From: Desulfobacterales bacterium
GTDB lineage: Bacteria > Desulfobacterota > Desulfobacteria > Desulfobacterales > JAHEIW01
Length of the DNA: 64,000 nt
NCBI GenBank assembly: GCA_050116835.1
Contig: JASFNW010000006.1
Location: forward strand, 457 to 64,456
Reading direction: 5' to 3'
In this document: in pieces, positions 50,494 to 64,000 of the stretch
Position numbering within the stretch: position 1 is the first letter of the stretch
How the letters are laid out: the number at the start of each line of letters is the position of its first letter
The notes under the pieces: model-generated
Database searches by the model: none
What the model saw: the letters and a program-made list of their open reading frames with translations, nothing else
What the model was told of the DNA's origin: nothing
Translations under genes and position numbers: made by a program

Positions 50494-51213
50494 TTACAGC
50501 GCACAGTATTTTTCATAGGCATCCTGGGAGAGAGTATGAATCGCGCTTTCGTGGCAGACACTGCCCTGATAGACGAGATAAGCGCGATCGCAGGTGTGTC
50601 TGGCAAAATTCAGGTTCTGTTCAGCCAGCAAGATCGATACCCCTTCAGACTTCAGACGTTGAATCGTCTGGGCCAGTTGTTCGACAATGACCGGTGCCAG
50701 CCCCTCCGAGGGTTCGTCTAAAATGATCATTTCGGGATTGCCCATCAGGGTGCGGGCGATGGTCAACATTTGCTGCTCACCCCCGCTGAGGGTGCCGCCG
50801 GCCTGATTGCGCCGTTCTGCTAAATTCGGAAACAGCTCAAATATGCGTTCAGGCGTCCAGGGCTCGAGACCCTCGCGCGGCGGCTGTTTGCCGACTTCCA
50901 GATTCTCCAAAATGGTCAGCTTGGAAAAAATCCGTCGATCCTCGGGCACGTAACCCAGCCCGAGGGCACAGGTTTTAAACGGCGGTAATTTTTGAATCGC
51001 CTTGCCCTTGTAAAATATTTGGCCGCTTTTGGGCGCGACGATACCCATTATGGATTTAAACGTTGTCGTCTTGCCGGCACCATTGCGCCCGAGCAACACA
51101 TTGACTTCTCCGCATTTAACCTCAAGGGCCATGTCAAATAATATCTGGGCCTTGCCGTAAAATGTGTTGAGGGCGTCAACCTTCAACATAATCTCTTGAG
51201 TGTCTGTGTGCAT
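50494..51213 (-). CDS. ABC transporter ATPase (LivF-like)
   Basis: GRNGAGKTTT, LSGGEQQMLTIARTL, MIILDEPSEG. The start may instead be ATG 51189 (MLKVDALNTFYG). Confidence 0.85.
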   Translation of the reverse strand: MHTDTQEIMLKVDALNTFYGKAQILFDMALEVKCGEVNVLLGRNGAGKTTTFKSIMGIVAPKSGQIFYKGKAIQKLPPFKTCALGLGYVPEDRRIFSKLTILENLEVGKQPPREGLEPWTPERIFELFPNLAERRNQAGGTLSGGEQQMLTIARTLMGNPEMIILDEPSEGLAPVIVEQLAQTIQRLKSEGVSILLAEQNLNFARHTCDRAYLVYQGSVCHESAIHTLSQDAYEKYCAL

Positions 51214-51523
51214 AGCAATTTATTCAACAATTATTTCAGAGGTCGAAGTGTTTTACATCCAAACCCTCACAGTGAGCAGAATGAACGATCGTTCGCGAAG
51301 ACCGCGCACTGTTTGAGTGCATTAGGGATCGTTGCAAAAGAACAGGAATCGGCAAGATGTCATGGATCTCAAATTAGATTCAAAACATGATAGCCTATTG
51401 TTATATAACCTTCACTGTTATTTTGCACCGAGCCCTTATGCACGAGTTTGCGCGGCTTTCGCGAGCGATTATTCATGGAGCAGCTCTCAGTTGCAAAAAC
51501 GCACCGATCCCTCGATTATTAGA

Positions 51524-52291
51524 TTATTCTTTCACCGGACCGGCAGTTTCACCGCGTCCCAGATAGATTTCCTTAACCCTTTCGTTCGCTTGAACTTCAT
51601 CCGGAGAGCCCTCGGCCACCAGCTCGCCGCGATTTAAGACAATGATGCGATCGGCATAGTTAAAGACCACATCCATATCATGTTCAGTGAAAAGCACACC
51701 GATATTTTGCGTGCGCACAATATCTTTTGTCAATTCCATCAGGTTTTGAGCCTCTGCCGGTCCCATCCCGGCTGTGGGTTCATCCATGAGCAGCAATCTT
51801 GGTTTATTTGCCAGTGCCACGGCCAGCTCCACGCGTTTCAGGTCGCCATAGGCCAAAACACCACAGGCCCGATCAGCCTGATCTTCAATCCCCAGCAATT
51901 TGAGCAGCGCCATAGATTCTTCTACATACAGACGGCTGACCTTCTTCAACAGAGATTTGGTGCGCCGGTGATAGGAAACAAGCACCATTTGAACATTTTC
52001 CAGTACCGACATGGAGGCAAAAGTGGAGGTTATCTGAAAAGTGCGACCGACGCCCAGCTTCCAGACATCTCTGGGTTTACTGCCATTGACGTTTTTTCCC
52101 ATGATGACAATATCACCATGATCCGGTCGAAGTTGCCCGTTGATGAGATTAAAACAGGTGGATTTTCCGGCCCCGTTGGGTCCGATCATTGCCAATAACT
52201 GCCCGTCTTTCAGTTGAAAGCTTACATCGACAATGGCTTTAACGCCGCCAAAGGCCTTATGAAGGTTATGCACTTCTAAAATCGTTGCCAT
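51524..52291 (-). CDS. ABC transporter ATPase (LivG-like)
   Basis: Start at ATG 52291 (MATILEVHNLHKAFGG). GPNGAGKST, YGDLKRVELAVAL, LLLMDEPTAG. The track extension to 52381 runs into a repeat element. Confidence 0.85.
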   Translation of the reverse strand: MATILEVHNLHKAFGGVKAIVDVSFQLKDGQLLAMIGPNGAGKSTCFNLINGQLRPDHGDIVIMGKNVNGSKPRDVWKLGVGRTFQITSTFASMSVLENVQMVLVSYHRRTKSLLKKVSRLYVEESMALLKLLGIEDQADRACGVLAYGDLKRVELAVALANKPRLLLMDEPTAGMGPAEAQNLMELTKDIVRTQNIGVLFTEHDMDVVFNYADRIIVLNRGELVAEGSPDEVQANERVKEIYLGRGETAGPVKE

Positions 52292-52348
52292 GGTATTCTC
52301 TTTGTCGCAACATGGTGGTCGGACATACTCTAAAAGCGATAATGCAAA

Positions 52349-52432
52349 AACCACCACGAAAACACGAAAGGAAAGAACCACGAAATAATTCTTTGGTTTT
52401 CGTATTTTAAAATTTTCGTGCTTTTGTGGTTA
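52349..52432. repeat. CACGAAA-type intergenic palindromic element (copy B)
   Basis: AACCACCACGAAAACACGAAAGGAAAGAACCACGAAA ... TTTTCGTATTTTAAAATTTTCGTGCTTTTGTGGTT. Lies between the permease and ATPase genes. Confidence 0.7.
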
Positions 52433-52472
52433 AATCATTCTTCCTGTCTTTTCGTACCTTAAAGTGATAAGG

Positions 52473-54311
52473 TTAATCTTCAAAATACTTGCCCAATCGA
52501 TTATGAATGGAGCCGGCGATCCCCTGCGGAAAGGCCACAACCAAGAATATAAATATACATCCGATAGCCAGCTGCCAAAAATCAAACCGCGCAATTTTAT
52601 CATGCAGCCAGGTATAGGCTGCTGAGCCGGCAATCGGTCCGAATAGCGTTTCAACTCCCCCCAACAAGACCATGAATAAAAACTCGAAGGAACGCGGGAT
52701 TGCCATTTCATCCGGAAACACACTGCCTTTTGAAAAAACGTAGATCCCGCCGGCAAGCCCGGCAAACACCCCTGCAATGGTGAAGGCCAACCACTGGTGC
52801 CGGCGCAGGTTAATTCCGATTGAGTCCACCCTGAGCGCTGAATCCCGGCAGGCGCGCATGGTATAGCCAAAAGGTGTAAATATGAAATAGCGCAGCAAAA
52901 GGATCCCACCGATGCATAAGACCATGGTCAGATAATAAAATACAACTTTCCCACTGGCCCAATCCGAAGGCCAGATCGTTAAAAGGCCATCATCTCCACC
53001 GGTAAATTCCCCCCATTGAAATACAATAGACCAACAGATTTGAGCAAAGGCCAGCGTCAGTATGGCAAAATACACACCGGACAACCGCACACAAAACCAA
53101 CCGATGATCAGTGCCAAAAGTCCCACAAATACGGGAGCAAAAAGGATGGCCAGTTCCATCGGGGAATTCAGATAATGCACCATCAGCGCCGCCGAATAAG
53201 CGCCCCCACCGAAAAAAGCCGCGTGCCCGAACGACACCATCCCGCCCGCCATCATAAAATACAAACTCATGCTCACTAACGCAAAAAGCGCAATTTCAGT
53301 CATCAATACCAAGCTGAACGAGTCAACAAATGCCGGCAAGACGAGAATGAATATGAGAAGCGCCAACCCCAGGAGTTTTAATTTTTTGGATGCCGGTTTC
53401 AGAATTGAATCCGCTATCTCCCCTGCACCATGCTCTTCAACTTCGGCTTTACCAAAAAGGCCGTGGGGGCGAATAATCAGCACCACTGCCATAGCCAGAA
53501 ACATCAGGACCAACGTGCTTTGCGGAAAGACCAGGACGCCAAATGAATTGAGCTCACCAATAATCACAGAAGCCAAATAAGCACCCGGAATACTGCCCAT
53601 TCCGCCGACCACTACGATCACAAAGGCGGCTGCGATCATGTTTAAATCCATCAGCAGATTGGCGCCGCCTTTGGGCAGCTGAACCGCACCGCCCAATCCG
53701 GCAATACAGGACCCTAAAAAAAATACCGTTGTAAACAGCCAGGTCTGGTTGACGCCTAAAGCATCTGACATTTCTCTGTCTTCAGTAGCTGCGCGGACTA
53801 AAATCCCCCAACGGGTATGACTCAACAATAACCAGAGGCCGATAAGAATCAACGGTGCAATAACGATAAGCGCAATGTCGTACTGCGGAAGTAAAGTCCC
53901 CATGACATCAATACTGCCCTCCAGACCCGGCGCCTGTTGGCCGAGGATATCTTCGGCACCGAATAGCCAACGGGACAGATCCTGAATGATTAGCACAACG
54001 CCAAAGGTGGCAAAGAGTATGAACAGCTCCGGCGCGCTGTAGAGCCGCCTCAACAAAAATACCTCCAACACAACGCCGATTAAACCGACAATCAGCGTCG
54101 CCAGAAAAATCCCTGCCCAGAAAGAGAGTGCGCCATGAGGGAAAAAATCGATCAGATAATAAGCCAGATAGGCACCGACCATATAAAATGAACCATGCGC
54201 CAGGTTAACGATGCGGGACACACCAAAAATTAAAGAGAGCCCGCAGGCCACCAAAAACAGGGCCGAAGCATCGGATAAGCCGGTCAGAAACTGTACAAGA
54301 TAAAAACCCAA
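52473..54311 (-). CDS. fused LivH-LivM-type ABC transporter permease
   Basis: 612 aa. The N-terminal half is LivH-like (..ACGLSLIFGVSRIVNLAHGSFYM..) and the C-terminal half is LivM-like (..GMVSFGHAAFFGGGAY..). Confidence 0.85.
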   Translation of the reverse strand: MGFYLVQFLTGLSDASALFLVACGLSLIFGVSRIVNLAHGSFYMVGAYLAYYLIDFFPHGALSFWAGIFLATLIVGLIGVVLEVFLLRRLYSAPELFILFATFGVVLIIQDLSRWLFGAEDILGQQAPGLEGSIDVMGTLLPQYDIALIVIAPLILIGLWLLLSHTRWGILVRAATEDREMSDALGVNQTWLFTTVFFLGSCIAGLGGAVQLPKGGANLLMDLNMIAAAFVIVVVGGMGSIPGAYLASVIIGELNSFGVLVFPQSTLVLMFLAMAVVLIIRPHGLFGKAEVEEHGAGEIADSILKPASKKLKLLGLALLIFILVLPAFVDSFSLVLMTEIALFALVSMSLYFMMAGGMVSFGHAAFFGGGAYSAALMVHYLNSPMELAILFAPVFVGLLALIIGWFCVRLSGVYFAILTLAFAQICWSIVFQWGEFTGGDDGLLTIWPSDWASGKVVFYYLTMVLCIGGILLLRYFIFTPFGYTMRACRDSALRVDSIGINLRRHQWLAFTIAGVFAGLAGGIYVFSKGSVFPDEMAIPRSFEFLFMVLLGGVETLFGPIAGSAAYTWLHDKIARFDFWQLAIGCIFIFLVVAFPQGIAGSIHNRLGKYFED

Positions 54312-54391
54312 AACTATTCCTTTATATGATCAAGATTAAACCATCGGAGGCGAATAATTCAAATATAGTGAAACTTACTCTGCACAATTAA

Positions 54392-54563
54392 ACTCGAAAT
54401 TCTAAGCACGAAATACGAAACAAATTCCAAATTCGAATATTTAAATGTTCAAAATATTAAAGATCGCAACTGAATATACATAGATGGAAAAATACGTAAT
54501 TGTGAGTTTAATAATTTGGTCATTCGAATTTGTTTCGAATTTCGATTTTCAATATTCGGATTT
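54392..54563. repeat. TTCGAAA-type inverted-repeat element
   Basis: Left arm ..CACGAAATACGAAACAAATTCCAAATTCGAAT (about 54405-54438). Right arm CATTCGAATTTGTTTCGAATTTCGATTTTC (54521-54550). The core CGAAACAAATTC / GAATTTGTTTCG is perfectly complementary. The AT-rich spacer is ~80 nt. Confidence 0.6.
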
Positions 54564-54564
54564 A

Positions 54565-54598
54565 GTTGCCGGTGCGGCTAAACGGCCACACCGGCAAC
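54565..54598 (-). terminator. strong hairpin directly after the binding-protein gene
   Basis: GTTGCCGGTG (54565-54574) / CACCGGCAAC (54589-54598), a perfect 10-bp stem. It lies 7 nt after the stop at 54605. There is no clear U-tract, so it is more likely an mRNA-stabilising or partial terminator. Confidence 0.5.
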
Positions 54599-54604
54599 TG
54601 AGTA

Positions 54605-55819
54605 TTATTGCGGTCTTAGTTTCATGACCTCTGCGTCACTGGGAAGATAATCTTTTCCGTCGGCGTATTTCCAATTTACCATGACACCTTTGCCATCTTT
54701 TAGAGCCGTGTAGCCCACATAGGCCCCCATGGTCGACTGGTGATCAATTTTGCGGTATGACATCGGGCCGACAATCGAATCGAAGGTTAAGCCTTCCATG
54801 GTGTCCACTAATTTTTCGGTGTCGAGCGTGCCGGCCTTCTTCAGCAGATGGTAAACCGAATACATGGTATTGTAACCCACCACCGAACCGGTGCGCGGAT
54901 AATCGTTGAACTTTTTTTGGTAGGCGGCCACAAACTTCATGTGCGCCGGCGTCTTGATATCATACCAGGGATATCCGGTGACCAGCCAGCCCTCCGGGGC
55001 CTCATCCTTCAGAGGATCCAGATATTCGGGTTCGCCGCTTAACAGGCTGACCATAAAGGTGTTGTCAAAGAAGCCTCTGAGTTTGCCTTCGCGCACAAAT
55101 TTAGCCAGATCGCTGCCGAAGGTTACATTGTAAACGGCTTCGGGTTTGGCGTCAGCCAGGGCCTGAATTTCGGCGCCGGCATTGATCTTAAACAGTGCCG
55201 GCCACTGTTCGGCCACAAACTCAACGTCCGGACGCTTGGCTTTTAAGACCTTTTTGAACGAGGCCACTGCATCTTTGCCATAAGCGTAATTCGGTGCAAT
55301 GGTGGCCCAGCGTTTGGCGGGATTTTTGGCAGCATCGACCGCCAGCATGGCTGCTTGCATATATGTCGATGGCCTCAACCGAAAGGTATAACGATTGCCC
55401 TTGGCCCAAACAACCGCATCGGACAGGGGTTCGGCGGCAATATAAAGCACTTTGTTACGCCCGGCAAAATCGGTTACCGCCAGTCCCACGTTGGAGAAAA
55501 AGGATCCCATGAGCAAAGCAACCTTATCTTTGCCGACCAACTCTTCAGCAACCTTTACAGCCTCACCCGGTTTTCCCTGATCATCCCGGGAAATGACTTC
55601 GATTTTTTTGCCCATCACACCGCCGGCGTTGTTGATTTCCTCCAGCGCCAGTTGCCAGCCATTGCGATAGGGGTGGGTGAAACTGGCCAATTTGCTGTAA
55701 GTCTGGACATCACCGACTTTAATGGTATCGGCGCCCAAAACTGCTGGCGCCGCTCCAAGAGCCAGCACGAGCGTGACGATCAGTAACGCAAACATGATTT
55801 TGCTAATCTTCATTTCCAA
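54605..55819 (-). CDS. periplasmic substrate-binding protein (LivK/PBP1 family)
   Basis: 404 aa. Signal peptide MKISKIMFALLIVTLVLALGAAPAVLGA and a type-1 PBP pattern. GGAGG RBS. Confidence 0.85.
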   Translation of the reverse strand: MEMKISKIMFALLIVTLVLALGAAPAVLGADTIKVGDVQTYSKLASFTHPYRNGWQLALEEINNAGGVMGKKIEVISRDDQGKPGEAVKVAEELVGKDKVALLMGSFFSNVGLAVTDFAGRNKVLYIAAEPLSDAVVWAKGNRYTFRLRPSTYMQAAMLAVDAAKNPAKRWATIAPNYAYGKDAVASFKKVLKAKRPDVEFVAEQWPALFKINAGAEIQALADAKPEAVYNVTFGSDLAKFVREGKLRGFFDNTFMVSLLSGEPEYLDPLKDEAPEGWLVTGYPWYDIKTPAHMKFVAAYQKKFNDYPRTGSVVGYNTMYSVYHLLKKAGTLDTEKLVDTMEGLTFDSIVGPMSYRKIDHQSTMGAYVGYTALKDGKGVMVNWKYADGKDYLPSDAEVMKLRPQ

Positions 55820-55864: not shown

Positions 55865-56722
55865 CTAGTTTGATGGTGAAATGAGCTCCCGAACACTTTC
55901 TGTCATCACGAAAACTTCTTTTAGCGCGATCAAAGCGCCGACAATGCATCCCTGCCCGCAAAGGGCGTTGGCTTTCGACAGTGCCGTTTTAACGGCCTGA
56001 ATCTTTTTGCCGGTGCTCAAAGACCCCACGTCAACGGTAACGTGGATCCCTTTTAGATCCGTGTTGCAATCCATCTGTTCTGCCGGTGTCTGAGCGATGC
56101 TGCTGTCCTTCACGAAGCAAGCATTGGCTATCGCGGTGGCAGCTGCATCCGCAATCGAAGCATCGTTTGCAATCACGGTAACCGCCGATGCAATCCCCCG
56201 GGTGAAGCTTCTGCCGCCGAGACCGCTGGTGGTCACGCCCCAGGAAAACCGGCGGGCATCCAGATGGGCGATATGGGATATATCCAAACTGTTTATGTGC
56301 GGTCGGATACCGACGGTTGCCGTCTGACCGGCTGCCATCCGTATGGCGATATCACCCCCATTGTCCACAACCACCTTGGCGGGCCCGCGGCCAAACAGCC
56401 AGTCGGCCACGGCATCGGCAATCGTGCCTGCCACGGCCGCCATGGGTGTCAGGTCCGCATCGCCAACCGCTTTTACGCTTTGAATCATCCGCTGCGCAAG
56501 ATCGTTGTCCGGCACTGTCACGATTTGGTCGACAGGCAAAGCCAGTATCGTGCGCTGTTCGGCGATCGCTTCCAGGTATCCAAAGGATACCTCCGCGGCC
56601 TGCCGGCACAGGGCTAATTGCGGTGCGCCTTTTTGCCAGGCGCGGATGGCCAATCGCATCGGCCCGCATTCGGCCAATACGGTTTCTTCATCCGGCAACG
56701 TTATGAATCGTTCATAGGACAT
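55865..56722 (-). CDS. UPF0280 family protein (ApbE-like fold, from memory)
   Basis: 285 aa: ..CGPMRLAI..TPMAAVAGTIADAVADWL..VDNGGDIAI..TTSGLGGRSFTRGIASAVTVIA... Pattern typical of UPF0280. Its stop lies 4 nt from the upstream hnr-like gene. Confidence 0.6.
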   Translation of the reverse strand: MSYERFITLPDEETVLAECGPMRLAIRAWQKGAPQLALCRQAAEVSFGYLEAIAEQRTILALPVDQIVTVPDNDLAQRMIQSVKAVGDADLTPMAAVAGTIADAVADWLFGRGPAKVVVDNGGDIAIRMAAGQTATVGIRPHINSLDISHIAHLDARRFSWGVTTSGLGGRSFTRGIASAVTVIANDASIADAAATAIANACFVKDSSIAQTPAEQMDCNTDLKGIHVTVDVGSLSTGKKIQAVKTALSKANALCGQGCIVGALIALKEVFVMTESVRELISPSN

Positions 56723-56725
56723 TGC

Positions 56726-58249
56726 TTATTTTGACCCGTGCTTTTTGACTTTAAAGGGCTTGATGGCCTCGGTGTGCCCCCCCATTTCTTCATAATCTTT
56801 CAGTTCCATCGTGTACTCAAGGGGGCAGATGGTGGCCGGTGTGGGCGTCCAATAAAAAGCGCCGGACTTGACGCGTTCGACATCCACCATAAAAGAAATA
56901 CCACCCCCCGGCAGGATAAATCCGGGGGAGCCGCCGACGGTCAAATGGGCCCGGCCGTTATGCACCGCCCGGGTAAGTTTGATCGGATAGCGCGTCACAC
57001 CGGCCCGTGCGCTGCCGCCGGCACCGGCGGTATAGATGGCCGAAACCCGGGAAGGCTGGCAGCTGTCGGCAATTGCCTTGAGGGCGGCCTTGGCTTTTTT
57101 AGAAAGCGGTATTTCCGTTAGTGTACCTCCTTTACCGATTTTAAAAATGGCGCCGTTTTGGCCGGTGGTCTCGGTAATCAAAATGGTCATGCCCGGGCGG
57201 GCCATTTTCATGTCGACTGAGCTGATGACATCCACTGGATTGGAGATGGAGGTGCCGCCCCAGCCGTTGCCATGATCACCGAAATAGCGTCCCGGGGTGC
57301 TTTCGTTAAACTTCAGCCGGATACCGGTTGATTTGGCACCGGCGTAAACACCGGCCACATGGCGACTCATCTGTCCGGTAATGTGTGAATCAATGATAAT
57401 GACCTCATCGGCAGCCGCTGCCAGCAATGGCGCGAATAATCCCATGGTGGCGCTGCCGCAGCCCACCCGCATTCTGGTTGCTTCCCGACCGTCAATTACG
57501 GGCGGGTGGCCCACCTGAACTTCCAGCCGGCTGCCATTTTCGATTTTAAGACTCACGCGTTTGCGATTGGCAATTTCGGTAATGGTTCTGGCAATTACAA
57601 AACCATTTTTCCCGGTCAAACGGTTGACACCGCCGATGTGCAGCATTTTTGAACCGTATTGCTCTGTCTCCACCATGCCGACTTCTCTTTTACCTGCAAA
57701 AATGAGATCGCCCTCTTTGCCGATGGGGATGTCCGTATCGATTTTGACGATGATAGAGCTGTAGCTCAACGGTACTTCGGTTACGACGGTGACCACATCC
57801 ACACCGCGTCTTTTGGTCTGCACAATTTGGGGCGCCGGTTTGCAGTCCGGGTAGGTTGTCCCGGCGCCGATGGCCGTAATCAGGGGTTTGCGGATATTGG
57901 CCTTGGGCTCGGGACCGACGATTTCTTTGACATCGGCATAGGTGTGCAGGCGCGTCAGGCGCAGAAGTTTTCCCCCTTCGTTGCGGTACCGGTGGCAGGC
58001 GCCGACAAACCCGGGCTGGATCCAGCATTTGATCGGACAGGCATCACATTCAATCGCCTCTGCCGGCATGCTGTCAGCGTCAATCACGGCATCACTTTCG
58101 CAAACGCGCATGCACACGCCGCAGTGGGTGCACCAGTGATCATTGATCAGCGCCTTTTGCTTGACCAGTTTAACGGCATCGACCGGGCAATCGCGCACGC
58201 AATAACCGCAGCCGATGCATTTTTCAGTATCTACCCTCATTGTAGGCAA
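56726..58249 (-). CDS. hnr: 6-hydroxynicotinate-reductase-like iron-sulfur (flavo)protein
   Basis: 507 aa. N-terminal 2 x 4Fe-4S ferredoxin motifs (CIGCGYCVRDCP, CTHCGVCMRVC) plus further Cys (CDACPIKC..GACH). It sits beside the enamidase-like and XDH-family genes, as in the Eubacterium barkeri nicotinate cluster. Confidence 0.6.
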   Translation of the reverse strand: MPTMRVDTEKCIGCGYCVRDCPVDAVKLVKQKALINDHWCTHCGVCMRVCESDAVIDADSMPAEAIECDACPIKCWIQPGFVGACHRYRNEGGKLLRLTRLHTYADVKEIVGPEPKANIRKPLITAIGAGTTYPDCKPAPQIVQTKRRGVDVVTVVTEVPLSYSSIIVKIDTDIPIGKEGDLIFAGKREVGMVETEQYGSKMLHIGGVNRLTGKNGFVIARTITEIANRKRVSLKIENGSRLEVQVGHPPVIDGREATRMRVGCGSATMGLFAPLLAAAADEVIIIDSHITGQMSRHVAGVYAGAKSTGIRLKFNESTPGRYFGDHGNGWGGTSISNPVDVISSVDMKMARPGMTILITETTGQNGAIFKIGKGGTLTEIPLSKKAKAALKAIADSCQPSRVSAIYTAGAGGSARAGVTRYPIKLTRAVHNGRAHLTVGGSPGFILPGGGISFMVDVERVKSGAFYWTPTPATICPLEYTMELKDYEEMGGHTEAIKPFKVKKHGSK

Positions 58250-58295: not shown

Positions 58296-58710
58296 CTCCC
58301 TCGCCCCCTTTAGGGGGAGAGGGTTTAGGGTGAGGGGGATTCATTCAAATGCAAAAGAATTTTCCCCAATACGGCATTCTTTTCTTTTAAAACATCACTG
58401 TTCCAGAATCTTAAGATACGATAACCCCTATTTCTCAGAAATTCTGAACGGTTATCATCCTGTTCCTGGGTCAATGCATGTTGGCCACCATCAATCTCGA
58501 TGATGATTTTTTTCTCGGCACAAACAAAATCAACTATAAAAGGCCCAATAGGTCGCTGGCGGCGAAATTTGAAACCACCTAACTGACGATTGCGGACACT
58601 GTTCCATATTGCTCGCTCCGCATCTGTCATATTTTTTCTCAGGATTCTGGCTCTTTGGCTCACTCCTGCTCCCCTCACCCTACCCCTCTCCCCTCGCCGA
58701 GGGGAGAGGG
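58296..58710. mobile_element. DUF559 cassette bounded by imperfect ~40-bp inverted repeats
   Basis: Left end CTCCCTCGCCCCCTTTAGGGGGAGAGGGTTTAGGGTGAGGGGGA (58296-58339). The reverse complement of the right end (58671-58710) is CCCTCTCCCCTCGGCGAGGGGAGAGGGGTAGGGTGAGGGG. Each end is itself a GC-rich hairpin. The cassette sits inside the ena-hnr spacer of an operon. Confidence 0.55.
58325..58678 (-). CDS. DUF559 (Vsr-like endonuclease fold) domain protein
   Basis: 117 aa: ..ARILRKNMTDAERAIWNSVRNRQLGGFKFRRQRPIGPFIVDFVCAEKKIIIEIDGGQHA..RSEFLRNRGYRILRFWNSDVL.., the DUF559 signature. GTG start. Both ORF ends extend into the flanking repeats. Confidence 0.8.
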   Translation of the reverse strand: MRGAGVSQRARILRKNMTDAERAIWNSVRNRQLGGFKFRRQRPIGPFIVDFVCAEKKIIIEIDGGQHALTQEQDDNRSEFLRNRGYRILRFWNSDVLKEKNAVLGKILLHLNESPSP

Positions 58711-58778: not shown

Positions 58779-59939
58779 TTACAAAACTTTCGGCTTGCGT
58801 ACCGGCGGCGGCGTATTGCGGCTTTTGGCCACCACAATCTCGCCATCGACCAGCACCATGGCAACTGCGGGCACATCGCCGGCTTTAATCGCAGCCAGCG
58901 CATCCGCCCCCACCGAGCCCATAGGTGTATCCATGATCACCAGATCCGCCTCATTTCCCTCCGAAATCACACCCCGGGGCAGTTTGTGCACGCGGGCCGT
59001 GTTGCCGGTAGCCATACAGATGGCCTGTTCTGGTCTGATGGCCGTCAGACTGGCCAGGTGGCAGATGACTCTGAGCACACCCAGCGGAATCACCCCTGTA
59101 CCGGAAGGCGCATCGTTTCCGATAATGATGCGGCCCAGGGCATTTTGTTCTATGCACAGGTTAGCGGTTTCCACCGCCACCTTGGGATTGCCGCAGTGAA
59201 CGATTTCCAGGGCCAGATCGGTTTCTTTTACCAGACGCTGCACTTCATCCATGGCAACTGCGGTCGGCCCGCCGTTGATATGAGACACGATATCGGGATT
59301 TGCCTGAATGACCATTTCAGCTGTCACCGTGCTGCTGCCCGGAATAGAGGTCCCGCCGGCATGCATCATCACTGTCATACCGTACTCTTTGGCCCATTGC
59401 ACCATCGGAGCAGCATCTTCTGGATTCTTGATGGTCCCCAGTCCAATTTCGCCGACGGTTCGTACACCTTCTTTGGCCAGTTCTTCAAAGTCACTTTTGA
59501 CAAGACCTTTTTCCAGTATCACCGAACCACCGACAACTTTACCGCCACCCGGTCTAAAATTGGCAAAGGATTTCGCGGCTAACATCGCCAGCGCTTTGGT
59601 GCCGGCCGGATCCTTGGGGCGCCCCGGCAGATGGACTTCCCCGGCGGAAATAAAGGTGGTCACACCCCCATGGACCTCGCTTTCTAAGAATCCGGTCTGA
59701 TTTTGTCTGGGGGTATAGTCACCTAAAACCGTGTGACAGTGCGAATCAAACAAACCGGGCATGACGGTCGCGCCATCACAGTCAATGATCGTTTTGGTAT
59801 CGGCGGCATCGAGATTGCCTTCCGGGCCAACTTGTTTGATCTTGCCGTCTTCGATTAAAATGGCATCGCCGGGCAAGATCGGATCGGCAATATCGCCGCT
59901 GACAATTGTTCCAATATTTTTTAGAAGGACTTCAGGCAT
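58779..59939 (-). CDS. ena: enamidase-like amidohydrolase (1,4,5,6-tetrahydro-6-oxonicotinate hydrolase family)
   Basis: Start at ATG 59939 (MPEVLLKNIGTIVSGDI, GGAGGTGG RBS; ATGCCTGA overlap with the upstream stop). Amidohydrolase motifs (PGLFDSHCH, MHAGG, SHINGG, GNDAPSG). Overall similarity to my recollection of the E. barkeri enamidase sequence. Confidence 0.65.
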   Translation of the reverse strand: MPEVLLKNIGTIVSGDIADPILPGDAILIEDGKIKQVGPEGNLDAADTKTIIDCDGATVMPGLFDSHCHTVLGDYTPRQNQTGFLESEVHGGVTTFISAGEVHLPGRPKDPAGTKALAMLAAKSFANFRPGGGKVVGGSVILEKGLVKSDFEELAKEGVRTVGEIGLGTIKNPEDAAPMVQWAKEYGMTVMMHAGGTSIPGSSTVTAEMVIQANPDIVSHINGGPTAVAMDEVQRLVKETDLALEIVHCGNPKVAVETANLCIEQNALGRIIIGNDAPSGTGVIPLGVLRVICHLASLTAIRPEQAICMATGNTARVHKLPRGVISEGNEADLVIMDTPMGSVGADALAAIKAGDVPAVAMVLVDGEIVVAKSRNTPPPVRKPKVL

Positions 59940-62220
59940 TTTCCACCTCCCTGGGACCAAAATGGCCGGCTTTAATACTGGTTTCCAATACACGCTCTAA
60001 ATTGGCGGGTAACTGATAAATCCTCTTACCGAGTGCATTTGCGAGGGCATTGACGATCGCCGGCGCGGTCGGAATCAAAGCCGGCTCGCCCACACCCTTG
60101 GCGCCGAACGGACCGCTCGGCTCCGGTGATTCCACGATGATGGGGATAATTTCCGGCATGTCGGCACAGGTGGGAATCAGATAATCTTTGAATGAAAGGG
60201 TTTGCCCGGGGACAAAAGCTTCCATCAGCGCAAAACCCATCCCCATGGCCACCCCGCCGCAGATCTGCCCTTTGACGTTTTCCGGATGAATCGCCTTGCC
60301 GACATCATGGGCTGCCACGATTTTTTCCACCTGCACTTCGCCGGTCAGGGTATCCACGCGAACGAGCGCCAGCTGGCAGGCAAAGGCATAAGTCGCGTAA
60401 GGCACGCCCTGACCGGTATCCGGATCCAATGGTACGGTATCCGGATCAAAAAATCCATTCCAGGTCAGCGGCAGCCCTTTTTTATGAAGTCGCTGTGCCA
60501 GCCACGCAAAATCCACCCTGTTGTCGAAATCATTGGCATCGCTGACATATCCGGAATCCAACCGCAAAGCCGCCTTGGGGACTTTCAGTTTGTTCACTGC
60601 TTCGGTCATCAACACATCGGCCAGTTTTTCGGCAGCATCTTTGACCGCATTGCCGGAAATATAGGTCTGGCGACTGGCAGAGGTCGCACCGGCATTCGTG
60701 GTACATTTGGTGTCTGCCACGACCATGCGGATATCTTCGGGCGTCAGGCCCAGGGATTCAGCGGCAATCTGCGCCAGCACCGTGGTGGATCCCTGCCCAA
60801 GTTCTGCGCAGCCGGTAAACAGCGTGATATGACCGTTCATGTCCATGGTCATTCTGGCTGTTGATGGGTTTTGTACACCGGTGTTGCCGATGCCGTACCA
60901 CATACAGCCGATACCCATGCCTCTTTTGATATGGGAACGACCGGTTTCATTCAGCCAGCGCGACCGGGCCTGCTCATAATGCGGCTGAATGGCTTCCAGG
61001 CATTCACCGATCCCGACACTGGCCGTTAATTTCTGGCCGGTGGCCGTCACCGACCCCTCTTTTAAGGCATTGGTGCGGCGCATTTCCAGCGGGTCGATGC
61101 CGAGCTTGCGGGCCAGCAGATCCATTTGAGATTCATGGGCAATGGCAATCTGGGGTGTGCCGAAACCCCGCATGGCACCGGAAAACGGGTTGTTGGTATA
61201 CACACAGAGGCTTGTAACATCCACGTTTTCAATCTGATAGGGACCGGTGGCGTGCACGGCCGAGCGCGATGCCACGGGTATGCCATACGATGCATACGCA
61301 CCGGTATCACAGGTAACGACAGCCTGCATGGCCAATAGCCGACCGTCGCGGTCCGCTCCGGTTTTTATCTTCATTTCGAGCGGATGCCGTTTAGCGGTGG
61401 CCAGATAGGCCTCTTCCCGGCTGTAGACGATGCGTACCGGTCTTTTGAGGTGATGGAGCGCCAGACCGATAAAACCCTGCACATTCATATCCAGTTTAGA
61501 TCCGAATCCGCCTCCGGTGGCGGCTTGTATGATTCGCACCTGCTGATCCTCGAGCCCCAACAGGCTGGTGACTTCTTTATGGTCGTAATGGGGATTTTGC
61601 GTGGAAGCGAAGATTACCAGCGAACCATCATAGTCCACATAGCCGGCACCGGCATCCGGCTCCAGATAACTGTGCTCGATGTGTCCGGTTTGGTATGTCT
61701 TTTCAACGACCGCGGCGCATTGTTTAAATGCCGCTTCAACATCACCTTTTTTGATTTTGCGCGTGAACAGCAAATTGCCTTTTTCATGGATCTTGGGCGC
61801 ATCGGGAGCCAGAGCCTCTGCAGGGCTGCGCACGGCCGGCAGTTCAGAATAGATAACCTCAATGGCTTTGAGCGCCTGATCGGCTGCCGCTTCGGTTTCA
61901 GCCGCAACCAGAGCAACCGGTTCGCCGATGCTGCGCACCTTGTCATCTGCCAGAAGCGGCTGATCTTTATTAATGATGCCGACTCGATTTTGTCCCGGGA
62001 TATCTTCAGCGGTGAAAATGCAAACGACACCCTCGATCACGGCCGCTTTTTCGAGCTTGATTTTTTTGATCCGGGCGTGGGCCGTTGTGCTTCGCAAAAC
62101 TCTAAGGATCAGCGGATCGTCAAGTTTCAGATCGGCGCTGAAAATCGGCTCACCCCGCAGTCTTTTTTCTAAACCGATTTTGCGGATGTTTTGCCCTATG
62201 GTTTTATATTCCGCTTTCAT
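59932..62220 (-). CDS. xanthine-dehydrogenase-family molybdopterin subunit (nicotinate-dehydrogenase-like, unsplit)
   Basis: 762 aa. Aldehyde-oxidase/XDH a/b hammerhead domain plus the two Mo-pterin-binding domains (..GGGFGSK.., ..RGFG.PQ.., ..GEPA..). Confidence 0.85.
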   Translation of the reverse strand: MKAEYKTIGQNIRKIGLEKRLRGEPIFSADLKLDDPLILRVLRSTTAHARIKKIKLEKAAVIEGVVCIFTAEDIPGQNRVGIINKDQPLLADDKVRSIGEPVALVAAETEAAADQALKAIEVIYSELPAVRSPAEALAPDAPKIHEKGNLLFTRKIKKGDVEAAFKQCAAVVEKTYQTGHIEHSYLEPDAGAGYVDYDGSLVIFASTQNPHYDHKEVTSLLGLEDQQVRIIQAATGGGFGSKLDMNVQGFIGLALHHLKRPVRIVYSREEAYLATAKRHPLEMKIKTGADRDGRLLAMQAVVTCDTGAYASYGIPVASRSAVHATGPYQIENVDVTSLCVYTNNPFSGAMRGFGTPQIAIAHESQMDLLARKLGIDPLEMRRTNALKEGSVTATGQKLTASVGIGECLEAIQPHYEQARSRWLNETGRSHIKRGMGIGCMWYGIGNTGVQNPSTARMTMDMNGHITLFTGCAELGQGSTTVLAQIAAESLGLTPEDIRMVVADTKCTTNAGATSASRQTYISGNAVKDAAEKLADVLMTEAVNKLKVPKAALRLDSGYVSDANDFDNRVDFAWLAQRLHKKGLPLTWNGFFDPDTVPLDPDTGQGVPYATYAFACQLALVRVDTLTGEVQVEKIVAAHDVGKAIHPENVKGQICGGVAMGMGFALMEAFVPGQTLSFKDYLIPTCADMPEIIPIIVESPEPSGPFGAKGVGEPALIPTAPAIVNALANALGKRIYQLPANLERVLETSIKAGHFGPREVENA

Positions 62221-62388: not shown

Positions 62389-63246
62389 TTATTGAATCAA
62401 AGGATGCATCATACGCATAAACAGCCCCTGAATGGCCGGCTCCTTGTACACTGCTGAGGGTCTTCGGCCGGTGATGCTGAACATTTTGTCCGCCAGCAGC
62501 TTACCGGCTTCCCATAAGATATGTTCAGCGGGCACTTTACCGGTCATGTATTCTTCGATTTCACGGAATCGATGCGGGGTTGGGGTACACGATCCCAATG
62601 CAAATCGCATATACGCAATTGAACCACCCTCATCCTGATAGGCCATGGCGGCCATGCTCATGCGTGCGATGGCCAGCTCCTGTCGCCGACCAATTTTCTG
62701 AAAATCAGCAAAAGTCACCTCCTGGGGCCTGGGCTGCAAAATAAAATGGCTGATGATTTCATTCGAATGCAAACTGCAGTGATAGGGCCCGCTGGCCATT
62801 TCTTCAATCGTGACGTGACGCTGACCCTCTGAGGTCAACACCACCGCTTCGGCATCATGAATCAGCAACGGCGGTATGGTATCGCCGCACGGAGAACAGT
62901 GAGCGACGTTGCCACCGATGGTGGCCACATTCCGTATTTGCCGGCTGGCAAATTTTTCTGCTGCCTTTCTCAGGGCCGGCGCCATGTCGGCGATGGTGTC
63001 GGACTCTAAAAGTTCACTTATGGTTACCGCCGCGCCGATAGACAGTTGACCGTCGCGCATCTCAATCTGTTTTAAATCTTCCAGTCGGCTGACGTCTAAG
63101 AGAAAGCGGGTTTTTAAAGCACCGGATCGCAAATCGACCATGATGTCCGTACCACCGGCCAGGATTTTGGTTTCCGCTCCGTTGGTATTTAGAAAATGAA
63201 GGGCATCTTCTAAATTCGTGGCTTTGATGTAGTCAACGTCAAACAT
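62389..63246 (-). CDS. XDH/CO-dehydrogenase-family FAD-binding subunit (CoxM/NdhF-like)
   Basis: 285 aa: ..KILAGGTDIMVDL.., ..IRNVATIGGNVA.., C-terminal CO_deh_flav_C-like region. Confidence 0.85.
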   Translation of the reverse strand: MFDVDYIKATNLEDALHFLNTNGAETKILAGGTDIMVDLRSGALKTRFLLDVSRLEDLKQIEMRDGQLSIGAAVTISELLESDTIADMAPALRKAAEKFASRQIRNVATIGGNVAHCSPCGDTIPPLLIHDAEAVVLTSEGQRHVTIEEMASGPYHCSLHSNEIISHFILQPRPQEVTFADFQKIGRRQELAIARMSMAAMAYQDEGGSIAYMRFALGSCTPTPHRFREIEEYMTGKVPAEHILWEAGKLLADKMFSITGRRPSAVYKEPAIQGLFMRMMHPLIQ

Positions 63247-63369: not shown

Positions 63370-63864
63370 TTAATCCTTTTTGAAAGCGGCCTGCTTTTCA
63401 GCGGCGGCTTCGACGGCTTCCATAATGCTGTGATACCCGGTGCAGCGGCAGAGGTTGCCCGAAATCGCTTTGACAATCTCACTGCGCTTGGGGTGCGGGT
63501 GTTTTGCCAGCAGGGCACTGGTGCTCATCAACAGCCCGGGTGTACAAAATCCGCACTGAACGGCGTGCTTTTCGGCAAAGGCTTCTTGAATCGGGTGCAG
63601 GCCGCCGCTTTGACTTAGACCTTCGACTGTCCACACGTCGCGCCCGTCCAACTGGGCCGCAAATATCAGGCAGGCGTTGACGGCGCGACCCTCAACCACT
63701 ATGGTACAGGCCCCGCATTCGCCAATGCCACATCCTTCTTTGGTGCCTTTGAGGTCAAGCCTGTCTCTGATGAGTTCAAGCGCCGTCATCCCCGCCGGGA
63801 TATGCAGCTGCTTCTTTTCTCCGTTGATGGTACACTGAATTGTTATGCGATTTGCTTTCGTCAT
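63370..63864 (-). CDS. XDH-family (2Fe-2S)-binding small subunit (CoxS/NdhS-like)
   Basis: CGIGECGACTV-type and CGFCTPG / CRCTGY motifs. Start at ATG 63864 (MTKANRITIQCTING, GGAG 6 nt upstream). The track start at 63876 is TTG. Confidence 0.9.
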   Translation of the reverse strand: MTKANRITIQCTINGEKKQLHIPAGMTALELIRDRLDLKGTKEGCGIGECGACTIVVEGRAVNACLIFAAQLDGRDVWTVEGLSQSGGLHPIQEAFAEKHAVQCGFCTPGLLMSTSALLAKHPHPKRSEIVKAISGNLCRCTGYHSIMEAVEAAAEKQAAFKKD

Positions 63865-64000
63865 GTCCAACTCCAAGCTGACATATCTGAATCAAAAAAC
63901 CTCACGCAAAGCCGCAAAGATATTTTTTGATATGAAAATTAGTGGTTCATCCATCAAGCCCCGGGCTCTATTTCGAAAGAGGTCATGTTTTTTTCTGAAT

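Follow-up and report, generated by a model that had tools for sequence, protein, structure and literature searches.

The gene pair at the locus

The window analyzed here, the whole stretch of 64,000 nucleotides (nt) taken from a Desulfobacterales bacterium (contig JASFNW010000006.1), carries on its minus strand a gene of the UPF0280 family, which encodes a protein of 285 amino acids (aa), immediately downstream of hnr, a gene of the 6-hydroxynicotinate reductase (Hnr) family, within a cluster of nicotinate-pathway genes. Our comparisons across genomes reveal that the link between UPF0280 proteins of this type and Hnr is specific and near-obligate and, judging from the sequences, the 285-aa protein is very probably a dedicated partner of Hnr. 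The gene pair consists of the following features:

55865..56722, minus strand: UPF0280-type gene with a predicted ApbE fold, of the Hnr-linked subfamily, 285 aa (family models, PDB 2o34 match, alignments)
56723..56725, minus strand: spacer of 3 nt between the hnr stop codon and the UPF0280 ATG (sequence)
56726..58249, minus strand: hnr, 6-hydroxynicotinate reductase family gene (likely start at ATG 58240, 504 aa)

The TAA stop codon of hnr (56728-56726) is followed after 3 nt by the ATG of the UPF0280 gene (56722-56720), whose open reading frame (ORF) ends at 55865, and the gap that a preliminary description of this DNA had placed at 56723-56725 is exact in the sequence; such a spacing is typical of translational coupling. 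The end given there for hnr, 56726, also stands, while its start at 58249 needs correction: from the TTG at that position the frame encodes 507 aa and, because the database homologues have 504 aa and begin at an ATG 9 nt further downstream, 58240 is the likely start.

The Hnr protein combines an N-terminal 2x[4Fe-4S] ferredoxin domain with an invariant third cysteine cluster, CX2CX3CX9C (C65/C68/C72/C82 in the 504-aa numbering). Its homologues carry the name 6-hydroxynicotinate reductase in NCBI and JGI records, and the 2x[4Fe-4S] domain, the extra cysteine cluster and the context of nicotinate dehydrogenase and enamidase genes all agree with membership of that family. For the core of about 440 aa (residues ~58-504), no Pfam family was found at E values up to 10 and no PDB entry matched by sequence; the AlphaFold2 (AF2) model of the protein is confident (predicted local distance difference test, pLDDT, 95), and its Foldseek and VIA-align matches all fall on the ferredoxin domain and are uninformative on the core. 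Some Hnr cores in other genomes are fused to a GltD-like module composed of Fer4_20 and Pyr_redox_2 (P0244 and P0249; loci L194 and L195), which suggests the existence of variants driven by NAD(P)H rather than by ferredoxin. The Hnr of Eubacterium barkeri reportedly contains a covalently bound flavin, and is said to have been purified as a single polypeptide species of ~54 kDa. To our knowledge, no accessory protein has been discussed for this enzyme, and every catalytic step of the E. barkeri nicotinate route already has an assigned enzyme.

The 285-aa protein matched the NCBIfam model NF003322/PRK04334 over residues 9-277 (E 5e-56, 190 bits) and, because this score lies under the equivalog cut-off of 290, it is assigned to UPF0280 at the family level only. 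By sequence it also matched PDB 2o34 (DVU1097; E 2e-9) and, weakly, the Pfam ApbE family (PF02424; 21.2 bits, under the gathering score of 25.6), and its close homologues carry the precomputed Pfam assignment PF27030 ('AbpE_bact'). The N-terminus, as read from the sequence, is acidic and has no signal peptide and, since it also lacks any hydrophobic stretch, the protein is cytoplasmic. The genome from which the window comes holds one Hnr and one UPF0280 gene, adjacent to each other, and one ordinary ApbE elsewhere.

Co-occurrence of UPF0280 with Hnr

Co-occurrence was assessed in a sample of 401 genomes of the Desulfobacterota, the phylum of the window, 289 of which were matched by the UPF0280 query in two clearly separated tiers: a full-length type, defined by coverage of residues ~10-280 at E <= 1e-22, and a weak tier of ~245-aa proteins, matched over residues ~66-205 at E 1e-18 to 1e-6. 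The weak tier is present in most genomes and never adjoins Hnr. The Hnr core was detected in 63 genomes. The full-length type was found in 61 of these, and one more has a copy truncated where its contig stops (G399, E 1e-15), giving 62/63 against 1/338 for the Hnr-negative genomes, in which the only copy lies 440 nt from a contig end. In 55 genomes Hnr is followed immediately by the UPF0280 gene in the same orientation; among the remaining Hnr genomes there are contig breaks (G024, G277), genes on separate contigs (G020, G249) and rearranged clusters (G246, G312, G169), and in G158, where Hnr is truncated at a contig edge, no UPF0280 was found. Two of the genes located away from hnr, L199 (G020:C109) and L200 (G246:C60), are nevertheless in nicotinate-type surroundings, one of them directly following the large subunit gene of the molybdenum (Mo) hydroxylase and the other ending a run of ATP-binding cassette (ABC) importer genes beside a [2Fe-2S] subunit gene. 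The same partition was observed in 300 Clostridia, in which the two Hnr-positive genomes both carry full-length UPF0280 and none of the other 298 does, with the weak tier alone in 46 others.

From a collection-wide scan of species-representative genomes, 80 loci were kept, which belong to Desulfobacterota, Bacillota (Clostridium, Sporomusa, Desulfosporosinus and Moorellaceae) and others, E. barkeri not being among them. In 71 of these loci a UPF0280-type ORF comes directly downstream of Hnr, 2 others have it within 5 kb, and in another 5 Hnr is at a contig end, so that the presence of UPF0280 is not judgeable. The one true exception is L062 (L062:9670-14185), with no UPF0280 relative in the 6.8 kb downstream of Hnr; an AA_synth gene, a Tpt1/KptA-like gene and a nicotinate phosphoribosyltransferase gene follow Hnr there instead. 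With start codons chosen heuristically, the distance from the Hnr stop to the UPF0280 start had a median of 3 nt in 53 related loci, and in 33 of the 53 the two genes are no more than 10 nt apart or overlap. The nicotinate module as a whole is conserved across the 80 flanks (enamidase in 72/80, Mo subunit in 63/80), and UPF0280 stays beside Hnr where the enamidase or Mo-subunit genes have moved (L075, L086, L093, L098, L100, L115 and L120). It also does so in the variant fused to GltD, since at L195 a PF27030 gene is still found 2 nt downstream. All these counts are given without P values because related genomes are not independent. The co-occurrence across genomes that the preliminary description had proposed to check is borne out in both samples and in the collection-wide scan, and a search of the literature found no paper linking UPF0280 to Hnr.

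Single ORFs that join Hnr and UPF0280 (P0428, P0431 and P0433) were considered as Rosetta-stone evidence and set aside as probable frameshift artefacts, because they come from long-read contigs with fragmented neighbors, one of them contains an internal frameshift, and the members of clusters at >=90% identity range from 444 to 786 aa. Likewise, the large open frames in G378, G282, G096 and G191 turned out to be two genes in different frames, and in G267 a stop codon stands between the genes.

Two branches of UPF0280

On the basis of their alignments, the Hnr-linked UPF0280 proteins form a distinct subfamily beside the generic UPF0280/COG2122/DUF375 branch, whose members, such as DVU1097 (2o34), DvMF_0044 and MA1715 of Methanosarcina acetivorans, are their nearest relatives (hhalign 99.9%, VIA-align Z 12.2). 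Common to both branches are a short ApbE-like core and the motifs PMAAVAG, NGGD, TSG and ADAAAT. The generic proteins, with ~245 aa, have a conserved Cys (VCTSS) and a conserved His (GHSxSxG) and track DUF39/HcyBio, whereas the Hnr-linked ones, with ~285 aa, have the motif TSGxGGRSFTxG, in which Arg171 replaces the generic His, no conserved Cys and an insert of ~30 aa, and track Hnr; each branch is thus tied to one ferredoxin-linked reductase. The generic branch, to which the weak tier of matches belongs, is present in 23/26 DUF39/HcyBio-positive and 0/15 DUF39-negative genomes among the 41 searched for both. Unlike most of the sampled members of its phylum, the genome of the window has no match to DUF39/HcyBio (PF01837) and no member of the generic COG2122 branch, and homocysteine is presumably made by another route in this organism.

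The preliminary description had treated UPF0280 as an uncharacterized family, which holds for its biochemistry, as no activity is known, and does not hold for its genetics: COG2122, DUF39 and a NIL/ferredoxin protein are required for homocysteine synthesis in Desulfovibrio vulgaris, with a cofitness of r = 0.98, and MA1715 aids sulfide assimilation in Methanosarcina (PMC5764234). Generic UPF0280 genes adjoin, on the same strand, a gene for a HIT-domain protein (nucleotide hydrolase/transferase) in 11 of 20 Desulfobacterota loci (L121-L140), which hints at nucleotide chemistry for that branch. A distant homology between the Hnr core and DUF39, by which the two pairs of enzyme and helper would be paralogous, was considered and is not supported, as the hhalign probability was 0.1-1.6% and the resemblance is limited to a short 'VDVVT...P.x.SSG' stretch.

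Relationship to ApbE

A profile of 74 Hnr-linked sequences was matched by hhalign to the ApbE profile with a probability of 97.2% in local mode (residues 99-208 against E. coli 189-311) and 98.0% in global mode. By VIA-align, the AF2 model of the 285-aa protein (built on an alignment of 37 rows) reached Z 12.2 against 2o34; its Z values against 17 ApbE/Ftp/FmnB entries were 7.2-8.8, with unrelated T-folds at 6.2 or below. The modeled architecture is an ApbE-like double T-fold, in agreement with the classification given for UPF0280 in the preliminary description. With the ApbE/Ftp/FmnB proteins (PF02424; Vibrio cholerae 6nxi, Treponema pallidum 4ifu, Escherichia coli 4xgv and Listeria monocytogenes FmnB 7esa), the double T-fold is shared over 143-172 aligned residues, together with the Ser, the Asp-x3-Thr metal motif, the GGD strand and an Arg at the position of FmnB Arg262, and the profile homology extends over the catalytic half. 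The Hnr-linked protein differs from ApbE in being ~60-70 residues shorter and in lacking the His257 loop and any signal or lipobox.

The catalytic residues of ApbE are Ser241, His257 and Asp285 (V. cholerae numbering), Arg262 of FmnB binds flavin adenine dinucleotide (FAD), and Mg2+ is essential (PMC12052999). Invariant in the Hnr-linked branch are G20-P21, V97-A98-G99, N121-G122-G123-D124, S166-G167, G170, G176, D192 and T196; S166, D192 and T196 are conserved in 100% and R171 in 99% of the 74 sequences. When these positions are mapped through the hhalign alignment and the E. coli sequence, S166 corresponds to Ser241, D192 (within D192-x3-T196) to Asp285, and R171, five residues after the Ser, to the position of FmnB Arg262. 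The subfamily also has a specific insert of ~30 aa (aa ~203-236, PAExLDPxTD) with conserved D218 and D222. The comparison with the ApbE active site thus had a divided outcome, as the Ser, the Asp and the DxxxT motif are kept, but the His loop is missing and the profile alignment does not reach the N-terminal segment on the flavin side. In terms of sequence, then, the nucleotide/metal half of the ApbE site appears to be kept, and the half that provides the base and the flavin side is not recognizable.

Other genes of the cluster

The remaining annotated features of the locus are as follows:

58325..58678, minus strand: DUF559 gene between the enamidase and hnr genes (Pfam)
58779..59993, minus strand: enamidase gene, pathway step after Hnr (Pfam; PDB 2vun, E 1e-151)
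59932..62220, minus strand: molybdopterin subunit of nicotinate dehydrogenase, NdhL and NdhM in a single chain (3hrd_A and 3hrd_B)
62389..63246, minus strand: FAD-binding subunit of the Mo hydroxylase (family models)
63370..63876, minus strand: [2Fe-2S] subunit of the Mo hydroxylase (family models)
50494..55819, minus strand: ABC importer of the Liv type with a binding protein, a fused permease and two ATPases, immediately 3' of the UPF0280 gene (family models)

The enamidase, an amidohydrolase, has a single strong PDB match, the E. barkeri enzyme 2vun, over its full length. The Mo hydroxylase belongs to the xanthine dehydrogenase family, and in the PDB its molybdopterin subunit is matched best by chains A and B of E. 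barkeri nicotinate dehydrogenase, 3hrd (E 8e-122 and 8e-72, respectively). Because of these matches, we regard the locus as the upper part of the anaerobic nicotinate pathway, and the same upper-pathway genes, for nicotinate dehydrogenase, Hnr and enamidase, are present in the nicotinate fermentation cluster of E. barkeri. The Liv-type importer is found in a minority of the related loci (9 to 16/80). The DUF559 gene, which encodes a protein of the Vsr/endonuclease fold, has no counterpart in any of the 80 loci, including L041, whose Hnr is 87% identical, and for that reason it is a recent insertion into the operon and not part of the module.

The operon is headed, upstream of the [2Fe-2S] subunit gene, by an AA_synth/DUF1185 (PF06684) gene located past the window end (G000:C6:64690-65148, or 64234-64692 in window numbering). 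A gene of this family is in the cluster in 63/80 related loci (L041-L120), where it heads the operon or else follows the UPF0280 gene directly, and some database ORFs join UPF0280 and AA_synth (P0429, P0430, P0432 and P0437). AA_synth is a second uncharacterized companion of the nicotinate module.

Discussion

Given the near-obligate pairing with Hnr, what the 285-aa protein does has to be sought in relation to that enzyme. An accessory role fits well, because all the steps of the pathway have assigned enzymes, and we consider it probable, though by no means certain, that the protein acts in the maturation of Hnr rather than as a subunit of the reductase. The preference for maturation comes from the fact that the positions kept invariant are those of catalytic residues in ApbE, that the gene is sometimes kilobases away from hnr, and that the Hnr of E. 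barkeri was reportedly purified as one polypeptide species.

As to the kind of maturation, the leading idea, which we put forward tentatively, is that the 285-aa protein attaches the flavin to Hnr, acting as a flavin mononucleotide (FMN) transferase. It is suggested by the fold, by the retained Ser/Arg/Asp-Mg site, by the covalent flavin reported for the E. barkeri enzyme, and by a search of 7 Hnr-positive genomes that found no canonical ApbE in 3 of them (G013, G024 and G025, which are 90-100% complete), a result that speaks for the need of a dedicated enzyme. In such a mechanism, the protein would bind FAD-Mg2+ through the retained nucleotide/metal site and transfer the FMN moiety to a hydroxyl residue on freshly synthesized Hnr, with formation of a phosphoester. 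The product would be the covalent flavin of Hnr (the one reported for E. barkeri), which would couple the one-electron input from the Fe-S clusters to the two-electron reduction of the ring. Since both the His loop and the target motif of ApbE are absent, recognition and base catalysis must differ from those of ApbE; the base could come from the subfamily insert (aa ~203-236, with D218 and D222) or from Hnr itself. Among the Hnr residues that might carry the flavin, T477 (in P-x-E-[YF]-T-M) and Y195 are invariant and C261 and S410 nearly so, and T477 would be, as a guess, the most conserved candidate acceptor. In setting, the nearest known cases are a cytoplasmic ApbE from Klebsiella pneumoniae and the ApbE domain in the fumarate reductase of trypanosomes, and the 285-aa protein would resemble the cytoplasmic ApbEs in being dedicated to one soluble reductase. 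Precedents exist in which a cytoplasmic ApbE or an ApbE domain flavinylates its own reductase (PMC12052999; bioRxiv 10.1101/2020.12.30.424822). A prediction of the complex of Hnr and UPF0280, both given as alignments, had a score of 0.17 and a mark of 0.32, and was not used either way.

Several observations weigh against flavin transfer. On the side of the 285-aa protein, the AF2 model has a mean pLDDT of only 66 and is poor across residues 138-233; the loop that carries His257 in ApbE (HxIDPxTG) is a gap in the alignment of the Hnr-linked profile, and in this branch no His or Cys column is conserved at 80% or more. The global profile alignment starts at residue 107 of E. coli ApbE, so that the N-terminal ~85 residues, including Y60 on the flavin side, are unaligned; the structural alignment runs over the full length of ApbE, but with only ~165 residues aligned. 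On the side of the presumed target, the Pfam search found no FMN_bind domain in Hnr, and the motif D-x-x-[ST]-G-A-[ST] of ApbE targets, or even [ST]GA[ST], occurs in 0/63 diverse Hnr sequences; the 'VGCGSAT' stretch of Hnr (GCGSAT) was examined as an ApbE-type site and rejected, its Thr being variable across the family. Finally, for the nearest characterized relative, COG2122, the genetics point to homocysteine and sulfide and not to flavin (PMC5764234).

A rival reading is a maturation of another type, of the kind that COG2122 might perform for DUF39, in which the protein would make Hnr active or attach a group other than flavin to it in a nucleotide-dependent manner at the Ser/Arg/Asp-Mg site, for instance by helping with the third Fe-S cluster or through a phospho- or nucleotidyl modification. 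The split of the family into two branches, with a ferredoxin-linked reductase of its own as partner for each (for the generic one, 23/26 against 0/15 genomes), would fit it, as would the need for COG2122 in DUF39-dependent homocysteine synthesis (r = 0.98) and the homology of COG2122 to ApbE, which seems not to reach the flavin-binding region (PMC5764234). The ApbE flavin-binding part is not recognizably kept in the Hnr-linked protein either, and the HIT-domain genes beside generic members (11/20 loci) are in line with nucleotide chemistry. However, the persulfide relay that has been proposed for COG2122 needs a Cys, of which the generic branch has one conserved (VCTSS) and the Hnr-linked branch none, and hhalign detected no sequence homology between the Hnr core and DUF39 (<=1.6%). 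Moreover, the cofactor reported for Hnr is exactly of the kind that ApbE-fold enzymes attach, and we regard a different maturation as rather unlikely.

It is also unlikely, in our view, that the reductase contains the 285-aa protein as a stoichiometric subunit with a structural or ligand-binding function, in which, for example, the pocket of the T-fold would hold the planar substrate or product or a non-covalent flavin or nucleotide. The conserved gene order, the coupling of the genes and their median gap of 3 nt are typical of subunits made in a fixed ratio, and T-folds often bind planar heterocycles, urate oxidase and pterin enzymes being among the weaker structural matches of the model. The apparent single-ORF forms (P0428 and P0433) would point in the same direction, were they not probably frameshift artefacts on long-read contigs, with cluster members of 444 to 786 aa. 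Against a subunit, the invariant residues correspond to catalytic and metal residues of ApbE and not to a surface patch, in a few genomes (G246, G169, G312 and G624) the gene is kilobases from hnr or on the other strand, and the E. barkeri Hnr is said to be a single ~54-kDa polypeptide species.

The least probable alternative is that the protein is a further enzyme of the pathway with a small molecule as its substrate, for instance a tautomerase or hydrolase of a ring-reduced intermediate or an FAD pyrophosphatase supplying FMN like the Ftp of T. pallidum. This would explain the co-inheritance with the whole Ndh-Ena-Hnr module and has a parallel in the ApbE-family proteins described as FAD pyrophosphatases (PMC4436053, PMC4767422), but the gene follows Hnr specifically when other genes of the module are rearranged. 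With all steps of the E. barkeri route already assigned, a catalytic pathway step is unlikely for this protein.

Returning to flavin attachment, it may be extended to the family as a whole, although we consider this extension improbable: both branches of UPF0280 would be cytoplasmic, His-independent relatives of ApbE that post-translationally tether a flavin or a nucleotide-derived cofactor to ferredoxin-dependent two-electron reductases with no recognizable cofactor domain, namely Hnr and the DUF39 homocysteine synthase. If so, it would account both for the flavin that Hnr binds covalently and for the dependence of homocysteine synthesis on COG2122 in archaea and deltaproteobacteria, and would define a second, motif-independent class of intracellular protein flavinylation.

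Whatever the exact chemistry, the hnr/UPF0280 pair offers a clean two-protein test system. Even if the flavinylation of Hnr by the 285-aa protein proves false, the tight linkage of the two genes still marks this protein as required for producing active recombinant Hnr. If it proves true, the 285-aa protein would be a flavin transferase of the cytoplasm that uses a new recognition site and works without a catalytic His, which would extend protein flavinylation beyond its known range, provide a new tagging tool and give a pointer to the function of the sister branch.

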